Of a stretch of 32,000 nt of DNA, positions 1,263 through 25,786 are shown piece by piece. Position 1 is the first letter of the stretch; each line of letters opens with the position of its first letter. Below the pieces are notes generated by a model. The model searched no databases. It worked only from the letters and a program-made list of their open reading frames with translations, and was not told the origin of the DNA. The stretch spans positions 1,500,001 to 1,532,000 of the forward strand of contig NC_000916.1 in NCBI RefSeq assembly GCF_000008645.1, read 5' to 3'. This DNA is from Methanothermobacter thermautotrophicus str. Delta H. GTDB taxonomy: Archaea; Methanobacteriota; Methanobacteria; Methanobacteriales; Methanothermobacteraceae. A program made the translations under genes and the position numbers.

Positions 1263-2516
1263 TCAGGTTCCTTCTTCCCAGTTTTCAAGGTAGAGTCTCT
1301 GTTTTTCTGTGAGTTCATCGATCTCAATGCCCATGGCATCGAGTTTCATCCGGGCAACCATCAGGTCTATCTCATCGGGTGCCCGGTAGACTCCAGGGTC
1401 TGGTTTCTCCTGGAGGAGGTGTCTTGCTGATAGTGCCTGCATTGCAAAGCTCATATCCATTATCTCTGCAGGATGACCCTGGCCACGCTCGGATGCAAGG
1501 TTCACAAGCCTGCCCTCAGCCAGAAGATATATTTTACGTCCATCAGGCATTATGAACACCTCGATGTCCTCCTTAACCTTTCCTGTCTCCCTTGAGAGCT
1601 CTTCAAGGGCCTCCCGGTTTATCTCAACGTTGAAGTGGCCGGAGTTCGCCATGACACAGCCATCCTTCATGTTCATGAATTCGGATTCAGAAACCACGTC
1701 TGTGTTCCCGGTGGCTGTTATGAGTATATCGGCCTCCTTAACAGCATCTGAAACCTTCATAACTCTGAAACCATCCATACGTGCTTCAAGAGCTCTTATG
1801 GGATCCACTTCGGTCACTATTACACTGGCTCCAAGTCCCTCAGCCCTCATGGCTATACCGCGACCGCACCACCCGTAGCCGCAGACCACGACGGTCTTCC
1901 CGGCTATCAGCATGTTGGTGGTCCCCATTATGGAGTCAAAGGTTGACTGTCCGGTACCGTAGCGGTTGTCAAAGAGGTACTTGGTGTAGGCGTCGTTCAC
2001 CGCCATCACAGGGAATTTGAGGGCTCCGTCGGCTGCCATTGCCCTCAACCGGTTTATACCAGTGGTTGTCTCTTCACAGGCACCTATTATCCCATCAAGG
2101 AGCTCCGGTCTCTCCCGGTGGACAAGGAATATCATGTCTGCACCATCGTCTATGAGGATTTCAGGTTCATGGTCCAGGACGCGGTGTATGTTCTCATAGT
2201 ATTCCTCGTTTGTCTCCCCACGCCACCCGTACATGTTGAGTCCCATCTTCGCCCCCGCGGCTGTGGCGTCGTCCTGGGTTGATAGGGGGTTGCATCCGGT
2301 CATGGCGACCTCTGCACCGCCTGCCTGGAGTGTGAGACCAAGGTTTATGGTCTTTGGTTCAAGGTGAAGGCATGATCCTATGGTGACTCCTTTGAATGGT
2401 TTCTCCTCTGAGAAGTCACTTTTTATCCTTTCAAGTACAGGCATGTGTTCCTGAACCCATCTGATCTTTTTTTCGCCCTGAGGGGCCAGTGAAATATCTT
2501 TAACTTTATATGGCAT
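1263..2516 (-). CDS. ahcY: S-adenosyl-L-homocysteine hydrolase (adenosylhomocysteinase)
   Basis: 417-aa ORF with a full-length family look: NAD-binding GYGWCGRG motif, ...HLEPKT..., ...DDGAD... An SD (GGGTGAT) lies 3 nt upstream of the ATG. Confidence 0.95.
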
Positions 2517-2791
2517 TGCATCACCCGGTTAACATCTTGGAGTTCCTTGTCTGTAGATAATAGGTTGTGGGTCATCACTTAAAAATAATTAATGGGCCCG
2601 GGGGGTGTTAATCTCAGGTGAGATCACTGAACTCAGAGAGGCCCTCAATAACGCCATTCAGTGCACTGGAGTGGGATTTCAGGAATTCAGATCTTATAAG
2701 AATGATTGATACTGACATTTTTTCCATAACAGTCCCTGATCACATCCATCATATGCCCTCTGTTTATGATTACTATGTAGTTATAAGCATC

Positions 2792-2820
2792 TGATCAAAA
2801 AATTGATCAAAGGTTTATAA
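2792..2820 (+). promoter_or_regulatory. Putative archaeal BRE/TATA (AAAGGTTTATAA), preceded by two TGATCA palindromes
   Basis: TTTATAA at 2814-2820 lies about 60 nt upstream of ATG 2883, which has a GGGGGG SD at 2872-2877. TGATCA occurs at 2792-2797 and 2804-2809, immediately upstream of the BRE-like A-rich stretch. Confidence 0.35.
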
Positions 2821-2882
2821 GTGAGAAAATTGTTAACTTTATCTAACTATTAAAGGAAAAAGTACATTGTAGGGGGGTTAGA

Positions 2883-3350
2883 ATGAGTGAAATATCTAAG
2901 TATTTAGATAAAATCTATAGGGATATCGCAGGTCCTTTCAAGGATCAAAACATATATGTCCAGAACAGAGAGGGTATAAAAAGCATCAGATTATATGATG
3001 AGAGTGATTTGCATGACGGAGAAAGATCTCATTGGGTAGGGACTTCTCATATCATGATTTTTGATGATGAAGAACCCTTCCTTGCCATCGAGGCAAAAAC
3101 TGTGGCCACTCCCAAAGAAATTGCCGGGCCAGTCCCACTCTACGCACTAACACGTATAGTTAAAATCAATGGAAAACCTTATGATGTGGAATCTCCATTT
3201 CTTCTCCTGATTACAGTTCCAGATCAGCCCAGGGAAGGGCAAAAGAGTGAGCAATTATCTGACTTAGAGAACAAGTTAAAAGATATACTTGATTTAGAGA
3301 GCAAATATTCAAATCTTAAAGATTTTGCATCTGTGAAATTAGCGATTTGA
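2883..3350 (+). CDS. Hypothetical protein in an AT-rich islet; possible PD-(D/E)xK nuclease-fold motif
   Basis: 155-aa ORF with an SD and a promoter-like upstream region. The segment HIMIFDDEEPFLAIEAKT has a D ... E-x-K arrangement on alternating hydrophobic stretches. I did not recognise a family. Confidence 0.6.
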   Translation: MSEISKYLDKIYRDIAGPFKDQNIYVQNREGIKSIRLYDESDLHDGERSHWVGTSHIMIFDDEEPFLAIEAKTVATPKEIAGPVPLYALTRIVKINGKPYDVESPFLLLITVPDQPREGQKSEQLSDLENKLKDILDLESKYSNLKDFASVKLAI

Positions 3351-3534
3351 AAAAAACTCTAAAGGAACTTCTGGAGAATAATGGTTATGGGAAATATGCT
3401 GATGATTTTTAGGTGACCATTCAGTTTTCACTTAATTAAATTTTGGAGTCAGTATAAAATTAAATCACAGGAGACCTTAAAAATAGAAGTTCTGCAAAAA
3501 TAAAAGGAGTTATAAAAAGGGAGTTATCGAGGAG

Positions 3535-15416: not shown

Positions 15417-15714
15417 ATTGGTTTCGGAAAAGCCGAAAATAAAGAATTTAAGAAAAATAGGGTTTTTTCATTTTTCACGTGGTATACCATGATTTCTGCG
15501 GATTCCTATCTGTGATTTCTGATGTGGGTATGTCTATCATGAGTATTATAGGGGGATAATATCCCCAGTATCCATTGTATGTCCTCATGATGCTATCCTC
15601 TATAGCTTAAAGGCCTGGGATCCCACTGGCTCCACTCACTCTTATGAAGACTATGTTGTTTGGGATAGTCCACCTCTCATCATTTATACGGTTTTAAGCT
15701 TTGATTTTCATGTT

Positions 15715-16134
15715 TCACGCAGGCGCTTGCCTTATTATCATAGTGCTATACAGAAGACACATTAGAGCAACCACCATGAAACCAATCATTGTAGTTGTAA
15801 ATATACTTTCTTCAAGAGGAACCTTTGAGGTTAAAGAAATTAACAAACCCAAAAAATTGAACCCCACTGTAACTAAAACACTAATTAAAAGTTTTTCGGG
15901 CGATTTTCTAATATTAATATGAACGTAAGTTCCTTTTCCTTTCATCCAACCCAAAATAGCCTCTATTAAACCTAGTGTCATACCTACAACAAATATATCT
16001 AGTAATATTATCCACGAACTTATGGCACTTTTTGGCGGCATCAGTCCAGTACCTTCCATATACCCTGTAAGAGAGATAATGGTAGTTATTATGAATGCTA
16101 TCAGTAAGCTGATTATAATTGGTTTATTTTCCAT
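15715..16134 (-). CDS. 4-TM membrane protein (candidate immunity partner of the orphan tail)
   Basis: 139-aa hydrophobic ORF with a strong GGGAGGGT SD 5 nt before ATG 16134. It lies immediately downstream of the orphan peptidase fragment. No similarity to the 121-aa membrane protein at 16720..17085 is visible. Confidence 0.6.
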   Translation of the reverse strand: MENKPIIISLLIAFIITTIISLTGYMEGTGLMPPKSAISSWIILLDIFVVGMTLGLIEAILGWMKGKGTYVHINIRKSPEKLLISVLVTVGFNFLGLLISLTSKVPLEESIFTTTMIGFMVVALMCLLYSTMIIRQAPA

Positions 16135-16204
16135 TTAGTACCCTCCCGTTATTTAATTTTAAAAAAATAAAATGCAATAGACGTCTTTTTACATGTGTAT
16201 TTGT

Positions 16205-16723
16205 CTAGGCATCGTATTCTATATAATGGATCCTGTGGTCTTTCCCGATATAAGCTCTCACTTTTTTGAACGGAGGATGATAAGCAATGTAACACCAGTA
16301 CTTTTTTGGCACGTATTTATTCCTAACTGAAATGATTATTGTACCTATTGTAACAGGCGCTAGGAATTGCCAGCACTTACCTTTAATGTTCTTCATTTCC
16401 TCATCAGTCAGAGTTCTGTTGTCTGCCTGCACATCAGAGGCGGTATCTGTCAGGTTATTTATGGAGTCTGATGAGTTTGTATTCTTGTTGCTTTGATCTG
16501 TAGTTTCGTTGACCTGTGGATTATTGGGATCCTTTATAACCAGTGTATATCCGCTATAAATCTCAGCGAACTCTTCTATATTCATTTCGATGTTCCCGAG
16601 GCTTGGATCTGCGAGTTTGACCGTGTCATTGGTGATTTCATTTATTACGGTGTAGTGTCCCGTGCCGTCTTGATGGTATCTTCTGGTGTCATTGATGTTG
16701 TGGTGGGGTCTGCGGAAACTCAA
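16205..16723 (-). CDS. 5'-truncated paralog ('orphan') of the C39-like peptidase gene with an alternative 56-aa C-terminal tail; may not be independently expressed
   Basis: Residues DGTGHYTVINEIT...TDEEMKNIKGK are nearly identical to the 17132..18097 product, then diverge into CWQFLAPVTIGTIIISV...VRAYIGKDHRIHYIEYDA. It lacks the signal peptide, catalytic Cys, an SD and an ATG; the track start is a TTG overlapping the upstream stop. Confidence 0.55.
   Translation of the reverse strand: MSFRRPHHNINDTRRYHQDGTGHYTVINEITNDTVKLADPSLGNIEMNIEEFAEIYSGYTLVIKDPNNPQVNETTDQSNKNTNSSDSINNLTDTASDVQADNRTLTDEEMKNIKGKCWQFLAPVTIGTIIISVRNKYVPKKYWCYIAYHPPFKKVRAYIGKDHRIHYIEYDA
16377..16679. repeat. Direct repeat, copy A (303 bp), paired with 17376-17679
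   Basis: Hand alignment against 17376-17679 gives 6 mismatches and one 1-nt indel (at 16669/17669), about 98% identity. The identical antisense ORF N-termini in the track (16493.. and 17492..) show the same repeat. Confidence 0.95.
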
Positions 16724-17085
16724 AGGGATTTTGATCTAGCTTTCGATATAACCTTGTCTATCATGGATCCTAATGTCATCAGTATTAGGACCATGAAAAA
16801 GTATCCAATTAAGGCTATTAAAAAGAGTCCCCCATGAGCAGATAGTAGTGTCCAGGTTGATGAAATATTGTGGTGAATCATCGATCCAAGTAATCCTCCC
16901 AGTAATCCTATGAATAAAGATACTATGGCTGTTATAATCATGTTAACCTCTTTTTCTTCCATCTTACTGAAATGCGCGATAAATAATCCTGCCAGGATAA
17001 CAAAGGACAATGCTAGAGGGAATGCCACTATCAAGGAGATGAGAAGCATTGACAAACCAATTAGCAGGACATATGCCCGTTTCAT
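16720..17085 (-). CDS. 4-TM membrane protein (candidate immunity partner of the full-length peptidase tail)
   Basis: 121-aa hydrophobic ORF with a GGAGGT SD 9 nt before ATG 17085. It starts 46 nt downstream of the peptidase gene stop on the same strand. Confidence 0.6.
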   Translation of the reverse strand: MKRAYVLLIGLSMLLISLIVAFPLALSFVILAGLFIAHFSKMEEKEVNMIITAIVSLFIGLLGGLLGSMIHHNISSTWTLLSAHGGLFLIALIGYFFMVLILMTLGSMIDKVISKARSKSL

Positions 17086-17131
17086 TTTTCACATACCTCC
17101 GAATGATACTCATATTCCACACTTAATTTCT

Positions 17132-18097
17132 TCATGCCGCATACCTATATCCCACGCGCCGATACCAATCCATATAGCGATCACCATAAGTCTTACAGCG
17201 AGCATAATAATAGTCAAAGCCATCAACATCCAGCGTACAAGCACAGCGCACCATTTGGGCTGTATAAGAGACTATATGGAATCCATAATAGGCACGGACA
17301 CGCACAGGATACCAACCATGCCAATGATAAGAATACCGCCACTTCCATGGATGCCAATGTTTATGTCTCCATTTTTTACCTTTAATGTTCTTCATTTCCT
17401 CATCAGTCAGAGTTCTGTTGTCTGCCTGCACATCAGAGGCGGTATCTGTCAGGTTATTTATGGGTTCTGATGAGTTTGTATTCTTGTTGCTTTGATCTGT
17501 AGTTTCGTTGACCTGTGGATTATTGGGATCCTTTATAACCAGTGTATATCCGCTATAAATCTCAGCGAACTCTTCTATATTCATTTCGATGTTCCCGAGG
17601 CTTGGATCTGCGAGTTTGATGGTGTCATTGGTGATTTCGTTTATTACGGTGTAGTGTCCGGTGCCGTCATTGATGGTATAGGCGATCATGTTTTCTTTGA
17701 GTTCAGATATGTTTAGTTTCATGCCGGTTGCGTTCATTCCCTTGGCCCTGCTGGCTTCCAGGAGGCCCTGCATGGTGGTCCCTTCTTCGGTTGTTCCGGC
17801 AAGGCCTGCGAGTTCATCCTCTGTGGTGTTCACTCCGAGTCTCTGGAGGACGGTGGCGAGTGCTGCGGGTCCGCAGGTGTAGTTCCTTGTCTGGAGGACC
17901 ACACCCTCAGAATCCACTGTAACATTATGGGGCAGCGCACCCGTTACATCATCCCCCTGTGCTTCAAGGACTGTACAGTTGTCTGCGCAGGCCGTGTCGT
18001 CCAGTGTGGAGTTGTCTGCAGCGGCTGAAGAGTTAACAGACACCGCGAGGAGGAGCACGACCAGCAACATGACATAAAAACCTCTCACTTTGGACAC
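17132..18097 (-). CDS. Secreted C39-like (papain-fold) cysteine peptidase with an Asn/Thr-rich linker and an 80-aa Trp/His/Tyr/Arg-rich C-terminal tail
   Basis: Signal peptide (VMLLVVLLLAVSVNSSAAA). Peptidase motifs Q-x5-NYTCGPAALATVL (Cys), GHYTVI (His) and LADPSLG (Asp). The tail begins KWRHKHWHPWKWRYSYHWHGWYP... The start is GTG at 18097 or GTG at 18088; GGGGTG precedes both. Confidence 0.75.
   Translation of the reverse strand: MSKVRGFYVMLLVVLLLAVSVNSSAAADNSTLDDTACADNCTVLEAQGDDVTGALPHNVTVDSEGVVLQTRNYTCGPAALATVLQRLGVNTTEDELAGLAGTTEEGTTMQGLLEASRAKGMNATGMKLNISELKENMIAYTINDGTGHYTVINEITNDTIKLADPSLGNIEMNIEEFAEIYSGYTLVIKDPNNPQVNETTDQSNKNTNSSEPINNLTDTASDVQADNRTLTDEEMKNIKGKKWRHKHWHPWKWRYSYHWHGWYPVRVRAYYGFHIVSYTAQMVRCACTLDVDGFDYYYARCKTYGDRYMDWYRRVGYRYAA
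17376..17679. repeat. Direct repeat, copy B (304 bp), paired with 16377-16679
   Basis: See copy A. It covers the distal part of the peptidase domain plus the linker of the full-length gene and ends exactly at the ...KNIKGK / tail junction. Confidence 0.95.
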
Positions 18098-25600: not shown

Positions 25601-25630
25601 ATTCTCAGATATCCGATATAAAAAGGTGGA

Positions 25631-25704
25631 TGGGCCCGCTGGGATTCGAACCCAGGGCCTCACGGTTATCAGCCGTGCGCTCTAACCACCTGAGCCACGG
25701 GCCC
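25631..25704 (-). tRNA. tRNA-Ile (anticodon GAU)
   Basis: The reverse complement GGGCCCG-TG-GCTC-AGGTGGTTA-GAGC-G-CACGG-CTGATAA-CCGTG-AGGCC-CTGGG-TTCGAAT-CCCAG-CGGGCCC-A folds by eye as a 74-nt cloverleaf. The anticodon loop is CT-GAT-AA. No CCA is encoded. A T5 tract lies about 6 nt downstream on the minus strand. Confidence 0.9.
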
Positions 25705-25786
25705 ATATTAAGAATCAGTGGGGTGATTCCAACTTTTGGAGTTACTCCTATATATGCTTTTCTGTGGTTCTGGAGACACACCCTTT

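Follow-up and report, generated by a model that had tools for sequence, protein, structure and literature searches.

What does a methanogen do with a predicted secreted C39-type cysteine peptidase that is present once in full and once truncated, when each copy ends in a different tail and each is followed by a different small membrane protein? This arrangement lies in a stretch of 32,000 nucleotides (nt) of the Methanothermobacter thermautotrophicus Delta H genome (NC_000916.1, positions 1,500,001 to 1,532,000; hereafter the window, with positions counted from its first letter). Four minus-strand open reading frames (ORFs) form two tandem modules between hypC and a trpY-like gene, all present as the initial annotation described. 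Module 1 consists of a precursor listed as 321 amino acids (aa) (17132–18097) and a 121-aa protein (16720–17085) with four predicted transmembrane segments (4-TM); module 2 consists of a 172-aa orphan ORF truncated at its 5' end (16205–16723) and a 139-aa 4-TM protein (15715–16134). We think that the locus probably encodes a Sec-exported, self-processing polymorphic peptide toxin (an archaeocin) together with cognate immunity genes. A polymorphic toxin/immunity candidate had been proposed here before, and we found the conserved head, the sharp junction, the variable tail, the covarying partner gene and the exchange of orphans that the proposal rests on; from these we infer toxicity and immunity. 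M. thermautotrophicus Delta H has long served as a model organism, and genetic tools are now available for it. To our knowledge, no antimicrobial peptide or toxin–immunity system has been characterised in methanogens, and nearly all known archaeocins come from haloarchaea.

The C39-like head of the precursor, read earlier from the letters alone, is matched by Pfam Peptidase_C39 (PF03412; E = 4.5e-34, 117.6 bits versus a cutoff of 22) over residues 66–192 (17522–17902). The catalytic residues are in place as well: in an alignment of 48 sequences, Gln69 and Cys75 are nearly invariant and His148 and Asp164 are invariant, and Cys75 aligns with the catalytic position of PCAT1. The best sequence matches of the head in the PDB are PCAT1, ComA, and LahT, all leader-cleaving peptidases. 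The same three came out on top when the AlphaFold2 (AF2) model was searched with Foldseek (E = 5e-10, root mean square deviation 1.5–1.6 Å over ~130 residues, target template-modelling score 0.80–0.85 for the peptidase domains), and the domain is modelled with a predicted local distance difference test (pLDDT) score of 93–98. StbD (8ssm, E = 5e-7) and PeiR (E = 1.6e-5, target template-modelling score 0.49) are far weaker structural matches. By family and modelled fold, the head is a canonical leader-cleaving C39 peptidase for which proteolysis is predicted. A PeiW/PeiR-type pseudomurein endoisopeptidase was ruled out as the identity of the head by the ranking of sequence and structure matches. 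The methanogen C39-like glycosidase A0A126R2S0 was also rejected as a member of the same family; it has a pseudomurein-binding domain and Asn in place of Asp, and it is undetected by domain databases. No fusion to an ATP-binding cassette (ABC) transporter was found, as NCBIfam transporter-family matches cover only the first ~130 positions, and no ABC transporter genes were called in the neighbouring loci examined.

The head appears to be exported. Residues 1–26 (18020–18097) read by eye as a Sec-type signal peptide, with a basic n-region, a 13-residue hydrophobic core, and an AAA cleavage region (predicted cut between ...VNSSAAA and DNS), and AF2 models a helix at residues 5–22. The likely true start of the precursor is a GTG at 18088, which is preceded by AGGGGTG; NCBI homologues begin MRGFYV.... 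The mature part contains 12 N-x-S/T sequons, none of them in the tail, versus 3.95 ± 1.7 in composition-matched shuffles (0 of 5000 reach 12), an excess that fits an exported, N-glycosylated archaeal protein. An Asn/Thr-rich linker follows the peptidase domain (residues 193–229, 17411–17521) and is predicted to be disordered (pLDDT 39–46); its length and sequence vary across the family. A stand-alone C39 domain of ~150 aa also occurs, conserved across Methanobacteriaceae including Methanothermobacter (e.g., L035 4941–5390, Pfam E = 4e-36; also L024–L034, L038, L055, and L057), and it has no signal peptide, leader, or tail.

Between the linker and the tail lies a feature that the initial annotation overlooked: the junction itself is, by its residue pattern, a double-glycine-type leader. 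The conserved block before the tail switch, LTDEEMKNIKGK (residues 230–241, 17375–17410), has the Leu-12, Glu-8, Met-7, Ile-4, Gly-2 pattern of double-glycine bacteriocin leaders, the kind of substrate on which C39 peptidases act. It fits the class II bacteriocin leader motif LSXXELXXIXGG (PMC1538908) as well as the Leu-12/Glu-8/Leu-7/Val-4 register. We retrieved 80 homologues, all from Methanobacteriales, and 61 of them carry the motif L[TS]xEEMQxIxG[KR] ahead of the variable part, with L-12 conserved in 60, M-7 in 58, I-4 in 58, and G-2 in all 61. Leader and tail A together gave a weak match to the lactococcin G-beta/enterocin 1071B model (E = 0.11); it lies over the leader and was the single match to class II bacteriocins, none being found for the mature peptide. 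In the AF2 model, residues 231–240 reach a pLDDT of 96, versus 39–46 for the preceding linker and 40–61 for the following tail, and form a short helix (232–236) and then an extended Lys239-Gly240. A protein from Methanothermus fervidus (P0022), 45% identical, shows the same leader pattern (pLDDT 91 versus 43). A confident block of 10 residues between disordered segments is as expected if the leader packs on the folded domain; its docking on the C39 domain is predicted only indirectly, from confidence values.

With a double-glycine-type leader at the junction, the C39 head is likely the releasing peptidase for its own tail. The predicted cleavage site lies after Lys241, and the homology between the two head copies of the locus stops exactly at this predicted scissile bond. 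In many Methanobacterium paralogues, a further motif of this kind (DPMAVKGKG, DPMNIKGKG, or a close variant) comes directly after the signal peptide (P0024, P0027, P0034, P0037, P0040, P0047, P0051, P0061, and P0076; L008 4683–5897), in which the spacing from Met to Gly differs by one residue from that of the C-terminal motif. The protease may also cut itself here and so shed its own N-terminus.

Beyond the leader the two modules have different tails: tail A, an 80-aa putative cargo peptide (17135–17374), and tail B (16208–16375), which follows the orphan leader (16376–16411) in the 172-aa ORF. The switch had been placed exactly after ...NIKGK, and there it lies: the repeat ends inside the Lys codon, and the sequences beyond it are unrelated. 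The sole stretch shared by the two tails is 7 residues long (E = 0.11), in agreement with the earlier view that they are unrelated. Tail A has a net charge of +9 and contains 7 Trp, 14 Tyr, 6 His, and 3 Cys. It is conserved as a unit in distant metagenome-assembled genomes (MAGs), with 59–62% identity to L002 and L003. Tail B is 100% identical over 55 aligned residues to the tail of a full-length gene in KEPCO 2. Across the family, 60 tails of at least 25 aa fall into 23 BLAST clusters. All 60 are net positive (median +7) and rich in aromatic residues (19%, versus 3.4% of the heads), while the heads are acidic (median -17.5). Some tails are classic cationic amphipathic helices; that of the M. 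fervidus protein is modelled as a single helix with a hydrophobic moment of 0.83 (p < 0.001). Estimates of the ratio of nonsynonymous to synonymous substitution rates (dN/dS) for the tails are 0.65 and 1.14, from only 11–25 substitutions, and are suggestive of relaxed or diversifying selection.

Searches with the tails returned little. No cell-wall-binding or anchoring domain of Pfam or NCBIfam matched them, a result on which the toxin proposal had been made to depend. A letter search of a large protein database with tail A gave no candidate sharing three words; because three homologues (P0001–3) do carry tail A, this empty result reflects a limit of the word index and not absence of the tail. 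One subfamily has short tails (IVPIIIVGGICVMCAAAYVYW...; L009 4761–6775, L015 4725–6781, and L002 718–3078), followed by a gene for a 4-TM protein of 174–189 aa and then a SpoIIM-family membrane protein (PF01944, E down to 1e-11). By its predicted proteins this subfamily looks more like an anchoring or sorting system than a toxin.

If the tails are cargo, the small membrane proteins are candidates for their immunity partners. The 121-aa protein, putative partner of tail A, and the 139-aa protein, putative partner of tail B, each have four hydrophobic segments in a Kyte-Doolittle scan, as the 4-TM assignment had it. They are also without detectable homology, in line with the earlier claim (hhalign probability <1%), and a third partner family from sister loci likewise has no detectable relationship to either (profile–profile comparison, <1%). 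The gap of 46 nt between the precursor and the 121-aa gene and the Shine-Dalgarno sequences GGAGGT and GGGAGGGT are as previously reported. AAB86134.1 of M. thermautotrophicus Delta H has the same sequence as the 121-aa protein, whose UniRef label "DUF5518" was not reproduced in family searches. The 139-aa family is tiny and lineage-restricted, with 12 representatives among 1.84 billion proteins. Pfam and NCBIfam searches with tails and partners gave sub-threshold noise only (MFS_MOT1, holin, DUF373, and DUF7695). The dN/dS values are 0.32–0.50 for the 121-aa gene and 0.12–0.56 for the 139-aa gene.

Tail and downstream membrane gene covary, as had been anticipated. In genome and metagenome loci, tails of class A are accompanied by partners of 121, 134, or 141 aa, class B by partners of 139, 141, 145, or 169 aa, class C by partners of 114–124 aa, class D by partners of 112 aa, and class E by partners of 131 or 136 aa. 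The 121-aa-type partner always comes after A-type tails in the loci examined, and the 139-aa-type partner follows B-type tails in L006, L042, L077, L079, L002/L003, and L093. We compared pairs of modules from different loci by tail class and partner class: 19 pairs agreed in both, 8 had the same tail class and different partner classes, 2 had different tail classes and the same partner class, and 152 differed in both (Fisher odds ratio 180, p = 2e-17, a value that overstates the case because the pairs are not independent). More tail–partner pairs were found in metagenomes. On one metagenome contig (L090), a gene for the tail A partner (766–1131, MKRAYVLLIG...) stands between a tail E module and a tail B orphan and is not preceded by a tail A; this may be an immunity gene left as an orphan.

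The orphan module shows how a tail may be gained and lost. Its 172-aa ORF encodes distal C39 sequence, linker, leader, and tail B. As had been noted, it repeats the distal part of the head alone (profile positions 81–132, E = 7e-12) and has no signal peptide or catalytic Cys. The head segment shared by the two copies, earlier put at about 98% nt identity, is a direct repeat of 293 nt with 98% identity: copy 1 (17376–17668) covers the distal head, linker, and leader of the full gene, and copy 2 (16377–16669) is a predicted recombination substrate. The orphan had also been described as having no ATG. This holds for its own frame, but an ATG (MTPEDT...) is present that a 1-nt deletion has put out of frame, and in other genomes the corresponding orphan is annotated as starting at this codon. 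An in-frame TTG of the orphan overlaps the stop codon of the 121-aa gene. The junction of the tail A cassette with the displaced copy (16670–16723) is identical, except for one missing T, to the 5' junction of an orphan at a different chromosomal site (L080), and the tails of these two orphans differ (B versus C). Orphan cassettes are present in the window, L002/3, L006, L080–83, and L089.

Genomes compared at the same chromosomal site differ as the recombination model predicts; the trpY–hypC site carries differing modules among genomes and not the same tail throughout. M. thermautotrophicus CP194219 (L079) has a single module there, a head fused to tail B and then the 139-aa gene, exactly the arrangement left when tail A, the 121-aa gene, and one copy of the repeat are taken out of the window. 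KEPCO 2 has three full modules at this site, two with tail D and a 112-aa partner and one with tail B and the 139-aa partner. A second site lies between a methyltransferase gene and dapF; there, four genomes (L080–83) have the head with tail A and the 121-aa gene, then a tail C orphan with a 114-aa gene. In two metagenome contigs (L084 and L085, shown here out of 18 with the same protein), the head is instead fused to tail C and followed by the 114-aa gene; this amounts to a clean deletion between 333-nt repeats by which the orphan tail C becomes the expressed tail. Recombinant junctions of the kind predicted earlier thus occur at two chromosomal sites. The Delta H proteins AAB85809 and AAB85810 belong to the locus at the methyltransferase–dapF site, and a degraded locus beside a ThrE-like gene (L078) has a tail A truncated after KKWRHKH; with further loci at other chromosomal sites, the window holds one of several such loci in the genome.

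The cassettes are also found in distant relatives. Tail B and the 139-aa gene are 91% identical in nucleotide sequence to their counterparts in L006, from a distant Methanobacteriota MAG (~91% and 90% at the protein level), versus ~51% protein identity between the heads, and the 5' edge of the cassette similarity lies in leader-coding DNA. This comparison indicates that tail–immunity cassettes cross lineages. We infer that the tail A cassette, consisting of repeat, tail A, 121-aa gene, and junction, integrates by one crossover in the distal head, that its integration displaces the resident tail and thereby makes it the "orphan", and that the cassette can excise again.

Other relatives have longer tails. 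In bacteria of the candidate phyla radiation (CPR; Uhrbacteria, Peribacteria, Nomurabacteria, and Microgenomates), the same head and an ...xxIxGK junction precede tails of 150–700 aa. We noted a signal peptide, a C39 domain, an ...IxGK junction, and long coiled-coil tails in L046, L050–L056, L059, L063, and L066. The tail of one CPR protein (L059 4542–8813) ends in a match to Pfam Ribonuclease (E = 5e-5, 24.2 bits versus a cutoff of 24); its gene is followed by a small ORF and then by an orphan cassette in which the pre-toxin region is repeated before the sequence diverges. Other CPR tails have weak matches to GIY-YIG (L066 4617–8215) and DUF4258. Judged on these predicted proteins, the CPR loci are a bacterial branch of the same architecture. 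Adhesin-like proteins of ~1,800–2,100 aa from Methanobacterium, Methanobrevibacter, and one contig labelled Methanomicrobiales also end in the C39–leader–tail unit (L018–L022, L041, L044, L047, and L049), with junctions LTDDEMKNIKGN or LSDKMMKEIKGL and tails of 170–300 aa. In two of these loci (L018 and L022) a gene for a 4-TM protein of 107–109 aa follows the tail; the contig of L049 ends inside the C39 domain, before any junction or tail. The CPR and adhesin-like relatives raise the likelihood that the toxin reading holds for the family, and their predicted junctions show Gly-Lys to be a trait of the Sec-dependent clade.

Taken as a toxin system, the locus would work as follows. The 321-aa protein would be exported via Sec through its N-terminal signal peptide. 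Outside the cell, in a reducing habitat, the C39 domain would bind the double-glycine-type leader that lies C-terminal to it, with Leu230, Met235, and Ile238 on the short helix and Gly240-Lys241 in the active site. The peptidase would cut after Lys241, in cis or between molecules, and free the cationic, Trp/Tyr-rich 80-aa tail A. The tail would then attack the membrane of related Methanobacteriales that have no matching 4-TM protein, and the 121-aa protein encoded just downstream would protect the producer. The second module would be a displaced former tail, not exportable as it stands, that retains a second immunity gene and a spare tail. Tail B could be re-expressed via homologous recombination between the 293-nt repeats, and cassettes of repeat, tail, immunity gene, and junction could move between loci and lineages, with crossovers in the DNA coding for the distal head and the leader.

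Several observations weigh against this account. Amphipathicity, taken as a marker of antimicrobial peptides, is not significant in tails A and B, either as helix or as strand, and the two tails match no toxin or antimicrobial-peptide family in Pfam or NCBIfam. Short tails elsewhere in the family, made of one hydrophobic helix and a basic end, resemble membrane anchors and pair with SpoIIM-family proteins, and part of the family may therefore serve another role. Some tail classes have no adjacent membrane gene, the orphan in the window is frameshifted relative to its ancestral ATG, and our literature search found no expression, secretome, or inhibition data. The AF2 confidence in the leader draws on an alignment that conserves leader and head together. 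At P1, the position just ahead of the predicted cut, 53 of the 61 homologues have Lys or Arg and none has Gly, Ala, or Ser; we know of no C39 peptidase that accepts Lys at this position, and for this reason cleavage at the Gly-Lys bond is unproven.

These points leave room for other explanations. The tails might be pheromone-like signals in kin recognition, with the small membrane proteins as sensors or modulators and the polymorphism as self/non-self discrimination. The closest enzymes, ComA and PCAT1, also process quorum-sensing peptides; ComC/CSP are C39 substrates; Makarova et al. did not decide between the two for an archaeal C39 locus, which they called "bacteriocin-like toxin or quorum-sensing"; and the tails in the window have no toxin signature. 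The partners, however, are 4-TM proteins of 110–140 aa that lack a kinase or any other output domain, and no gene for a regulator lies next to them. The tails are without exception strongly cationic and aromatic, and orphan arrays, horizontal cassette transfer, and ribonuclease-tailed relatives are marks of conflict systems. We regard signalling as unlikely. A little less probable still is that the tail anchors a surface protease, with the Gly-Lys as a sorting or shedding site comparable to GlyGly-CTERM and the membrane proteins as docks. Several tail classes do combine a hydrophobic helix with basic residues (tail B, tail D, and the short IVPIIIVGG... tails), and giant adhesin-like proteins end in the same C39–leader–tail unit. 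Tail A and the F-type tails, on the other hand, have no hydrophobic segment, and the CPR relatives carry nuclease-type tails. Anchoring would also leave unexplained the 23 tail classes, the partner gene for each class, the truncated spare copies, and the cassettes shared across lineages.

The roles of head and tail might also be reversed, the head being a protease toxin or cell-wall hydrolase, the tails serving in receptor binding or targeting, and the membrane proteins acting as immunity factors or receptor decoys. Toxins with a C39 fold (StbD-CT and Tox-PL-C39) and the pseudomurein endoisopeptidase PeiR give this idea precedents, yet it is the tail and not the head that varies and covaries with the partner gene, and the partner families are mutually unrelated membrane proteins. 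The head is also much closer to the leader peptidases than to PeiR or StbD, and a conserved leader-like substrate lies in the same chain, so that we hold this very improbable. Least credible to us is a decaying duplication with no current function, a copy of a secreted protease next to unrelated small membrane ORFs in a foreign AT-rich islet. The orphan is indeed frameshifted at its ATG and followed by a decayed remnant, and truncated family members are common in databases. Against decay, tail B is intact, as is its partner (identity to expressed-type copies 100% and 98.6%, respectively), the partner genes have dN/dS values of 0.12–0.56, and these modular pairs are met again in different genera and at more than one site in the chromosome. 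A self-processing peptide toxin with cognate immunity genes is the reading we retain; what weight remains we leave to an explanation we have not thought of.

The surroundings of the locus agree with its earlier description as an AT-rich islet. Tails and partner genes have 34–45% GC, versus ~50% for the window; along the islet, GC falls from 54.5% in the 5' head to 42% in the repeat and 34–39% in tail B and both partner genes. On one flank, the hypC assignment is supported by a match to HypC (PF01455, E = 3.5e-26). On the opposite flank lies a weakly matched ACT/helix-turn-helix protein, divergent from trpE. Just past the 139-aa gene, positions 15490–15687 on the minus strand gave collinear tblastn matches in one frame to head residues 89–105 (E = 0.004) and 163–205 (E = 0.38). 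The translation reads ...PNNIVFIRVSG... and then ...PGL, a stop codon, AIEDSI...YNGYWGYY..., with an internal deletion, and the stretch has no Pfam match. It is tentatively a relic of a third truncated head copy, comparable to the longer arrays of L006. Promoter and terminator scans gave counts near the shuffle expectation, and their bacterial consensus makes them uninformative for an archaeon. We found no relatives of the islet in the viral contigs searched, and nothing ties it to a virus. ARAGORN and Rfam scans of the window detected a single RNA gene, a tRNA-Ile (GAT) at 25627–25705 on the minus strand. A second AT-rich islet (36% GC, 2500–3500) lies between a gene resembling S-adenosylhomocysteine hydrolase and one for a CDC48-like ATPase; it includes a 155-aa ORF (2883–3350, plus strand) with no Pfam match.

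Whether the family amounts to a new class of conflict system, spread across Methanobacteriales and CPR, seems to us evenly balanced. Such a class would be defined by a Sec-exported C39 peptidase, an internal leader, Gly-Lys/Arg specificity, and exchangeable cargo; the methanogen cargos would be the first archaeocins of this group, and the DNA coding for the leader would be the site of recombination. If true, the double-glycine leader/C39 logic of bacterial bacteriocins has been rewired into one Sec-exported chain, and C39 specificity extends to Gly-Lys/Arg. It would also open a route to agents against methanogens with pseudomurein walls and explain the strain-level hypervariability of "Peptidase C39" genes in subsurface Methanobacterium. 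Delta H holds a complete candidate system, and the predictions are sharp: a defined cleavage site, defined peptide products and partner genes, and strains in nature whose differences are confined to tail and partner.

Archaeal C39 genes have drawn attention before. Makarova, Wolf and Koonin (2019; PMC6393860, Fig. 2E) present an archaeal C39 locus with separate double-glycine-leader proteins as a "bacteriocin-like toxin or quorum-sensing" system, and Fones et al. (2020; PMC8115248) report a "Peptidase C39" gene that is hypervariable among single-cell genomes of subsurface Methanobacterium. The portions of these two papers considered here share with our locus an archaeal C39 gene, a possible bacteriocin-like function, duplication, variability, and rearranged neighbours; the same portions contain no peptidase–leader–cargo fusion, Gly-Lys junction, tail–partner covariation, orphan cassettes, or recombinants. 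We found this architecture described nowhere in the literature searched, which did not include the archaeal toxin survey published in mBio in 2019. The precursor of halocin C8, ProC8, is another secreted archaeal protein that releases a C-terminal archaeocin, of ~76 aa. It differs in using the twin-arginine translocation (Tat) pathway and in having the immunity protein HalI, and not a protease, at its N-terminus; no mechanism is known for its cleavage, and it has neither sequence similarity to our locus nor such cassette polymorphism. No Pfam match to HalI-like or halocin C8 domains was found in any of the four locus proteins.

Closer parallels come from bacteria. With PCAT1/CtA, ComA/ComC, and LahT the locus has in common the peptidase family and fold, the leader recognition pattern, a small cationic released part, and a small immunity-type gene adjacent. 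In those systems the peptidase is the N-terminal domain of an ABC transporter and P1 is Gly, Ala, or Ser, whereas here it is a soluble protein predicted to be exported by Sec, and P1 is Lys or Arg. The leader of the archaeal protein is also internal, enzyme and substrate form one polypeptide, export would precede cleavage, and the host is an archaeon. Class II bacteriocins, similarly, are made as small precursors with an N-terminal leader and a dedicated ABC transporter; in our locus the leader begins at residue 230 of a 321-aa Sec precursor, with no transporter. StbD-CT of Citrobacter rodentium is a C39 peptidase that auto-processes in cis after a Gly-Gly in a flexible linker, under reducing conditions only (bioRxiv 10.64898/2026.05.07.723447). 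It resembles the archaeal head in structure, and its self-cleavage at a glycine motif within a flexible linker is what we predict for the latter. In StbD, however, C39 is the variable toxin, which is sent to the target cytosol and freed from an N-terminal entry domain, and the immunity protein binds the peptidase; in our locus C39 is constant and the piece C-terminal to the predicted cut is variable.

The other half of the architecture is that of the polymorphic toxins, such as CdiA-CT/CdiI of contact-dependent growth inhibition (CDI) and the Rhs toxins (PMC3482391). They share with the locus a constant N-terminal part, variable C-termini, a sharp junction, a downstream cognate gene, 5'-truncated orphan cassettes, tail switching by recombination, and the principle of a releasing peptidase within the chain. 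The survey of these toxins by Zhang et al. (2012; PMC3482391) lists HINT, ZU5, PrsW, caspase, MCF1-SHE, and others as releasing peptidases and C39 as a toxin domain only. CDI and Rhs toxins carry enzymatic cargo domains, in contrast to the 27–104-aa peptides of the archaeal family, whose putative immunity proteins are small multi-pass membrane proteins and whose export would rely on Sec alone, with no dedicated secretion machine. Polymorphic toxins with a releasing peptidase and bacteriocins with a double-glycine leader are both known kinds of system, and the locus, as a variant of these, is not categorically new.

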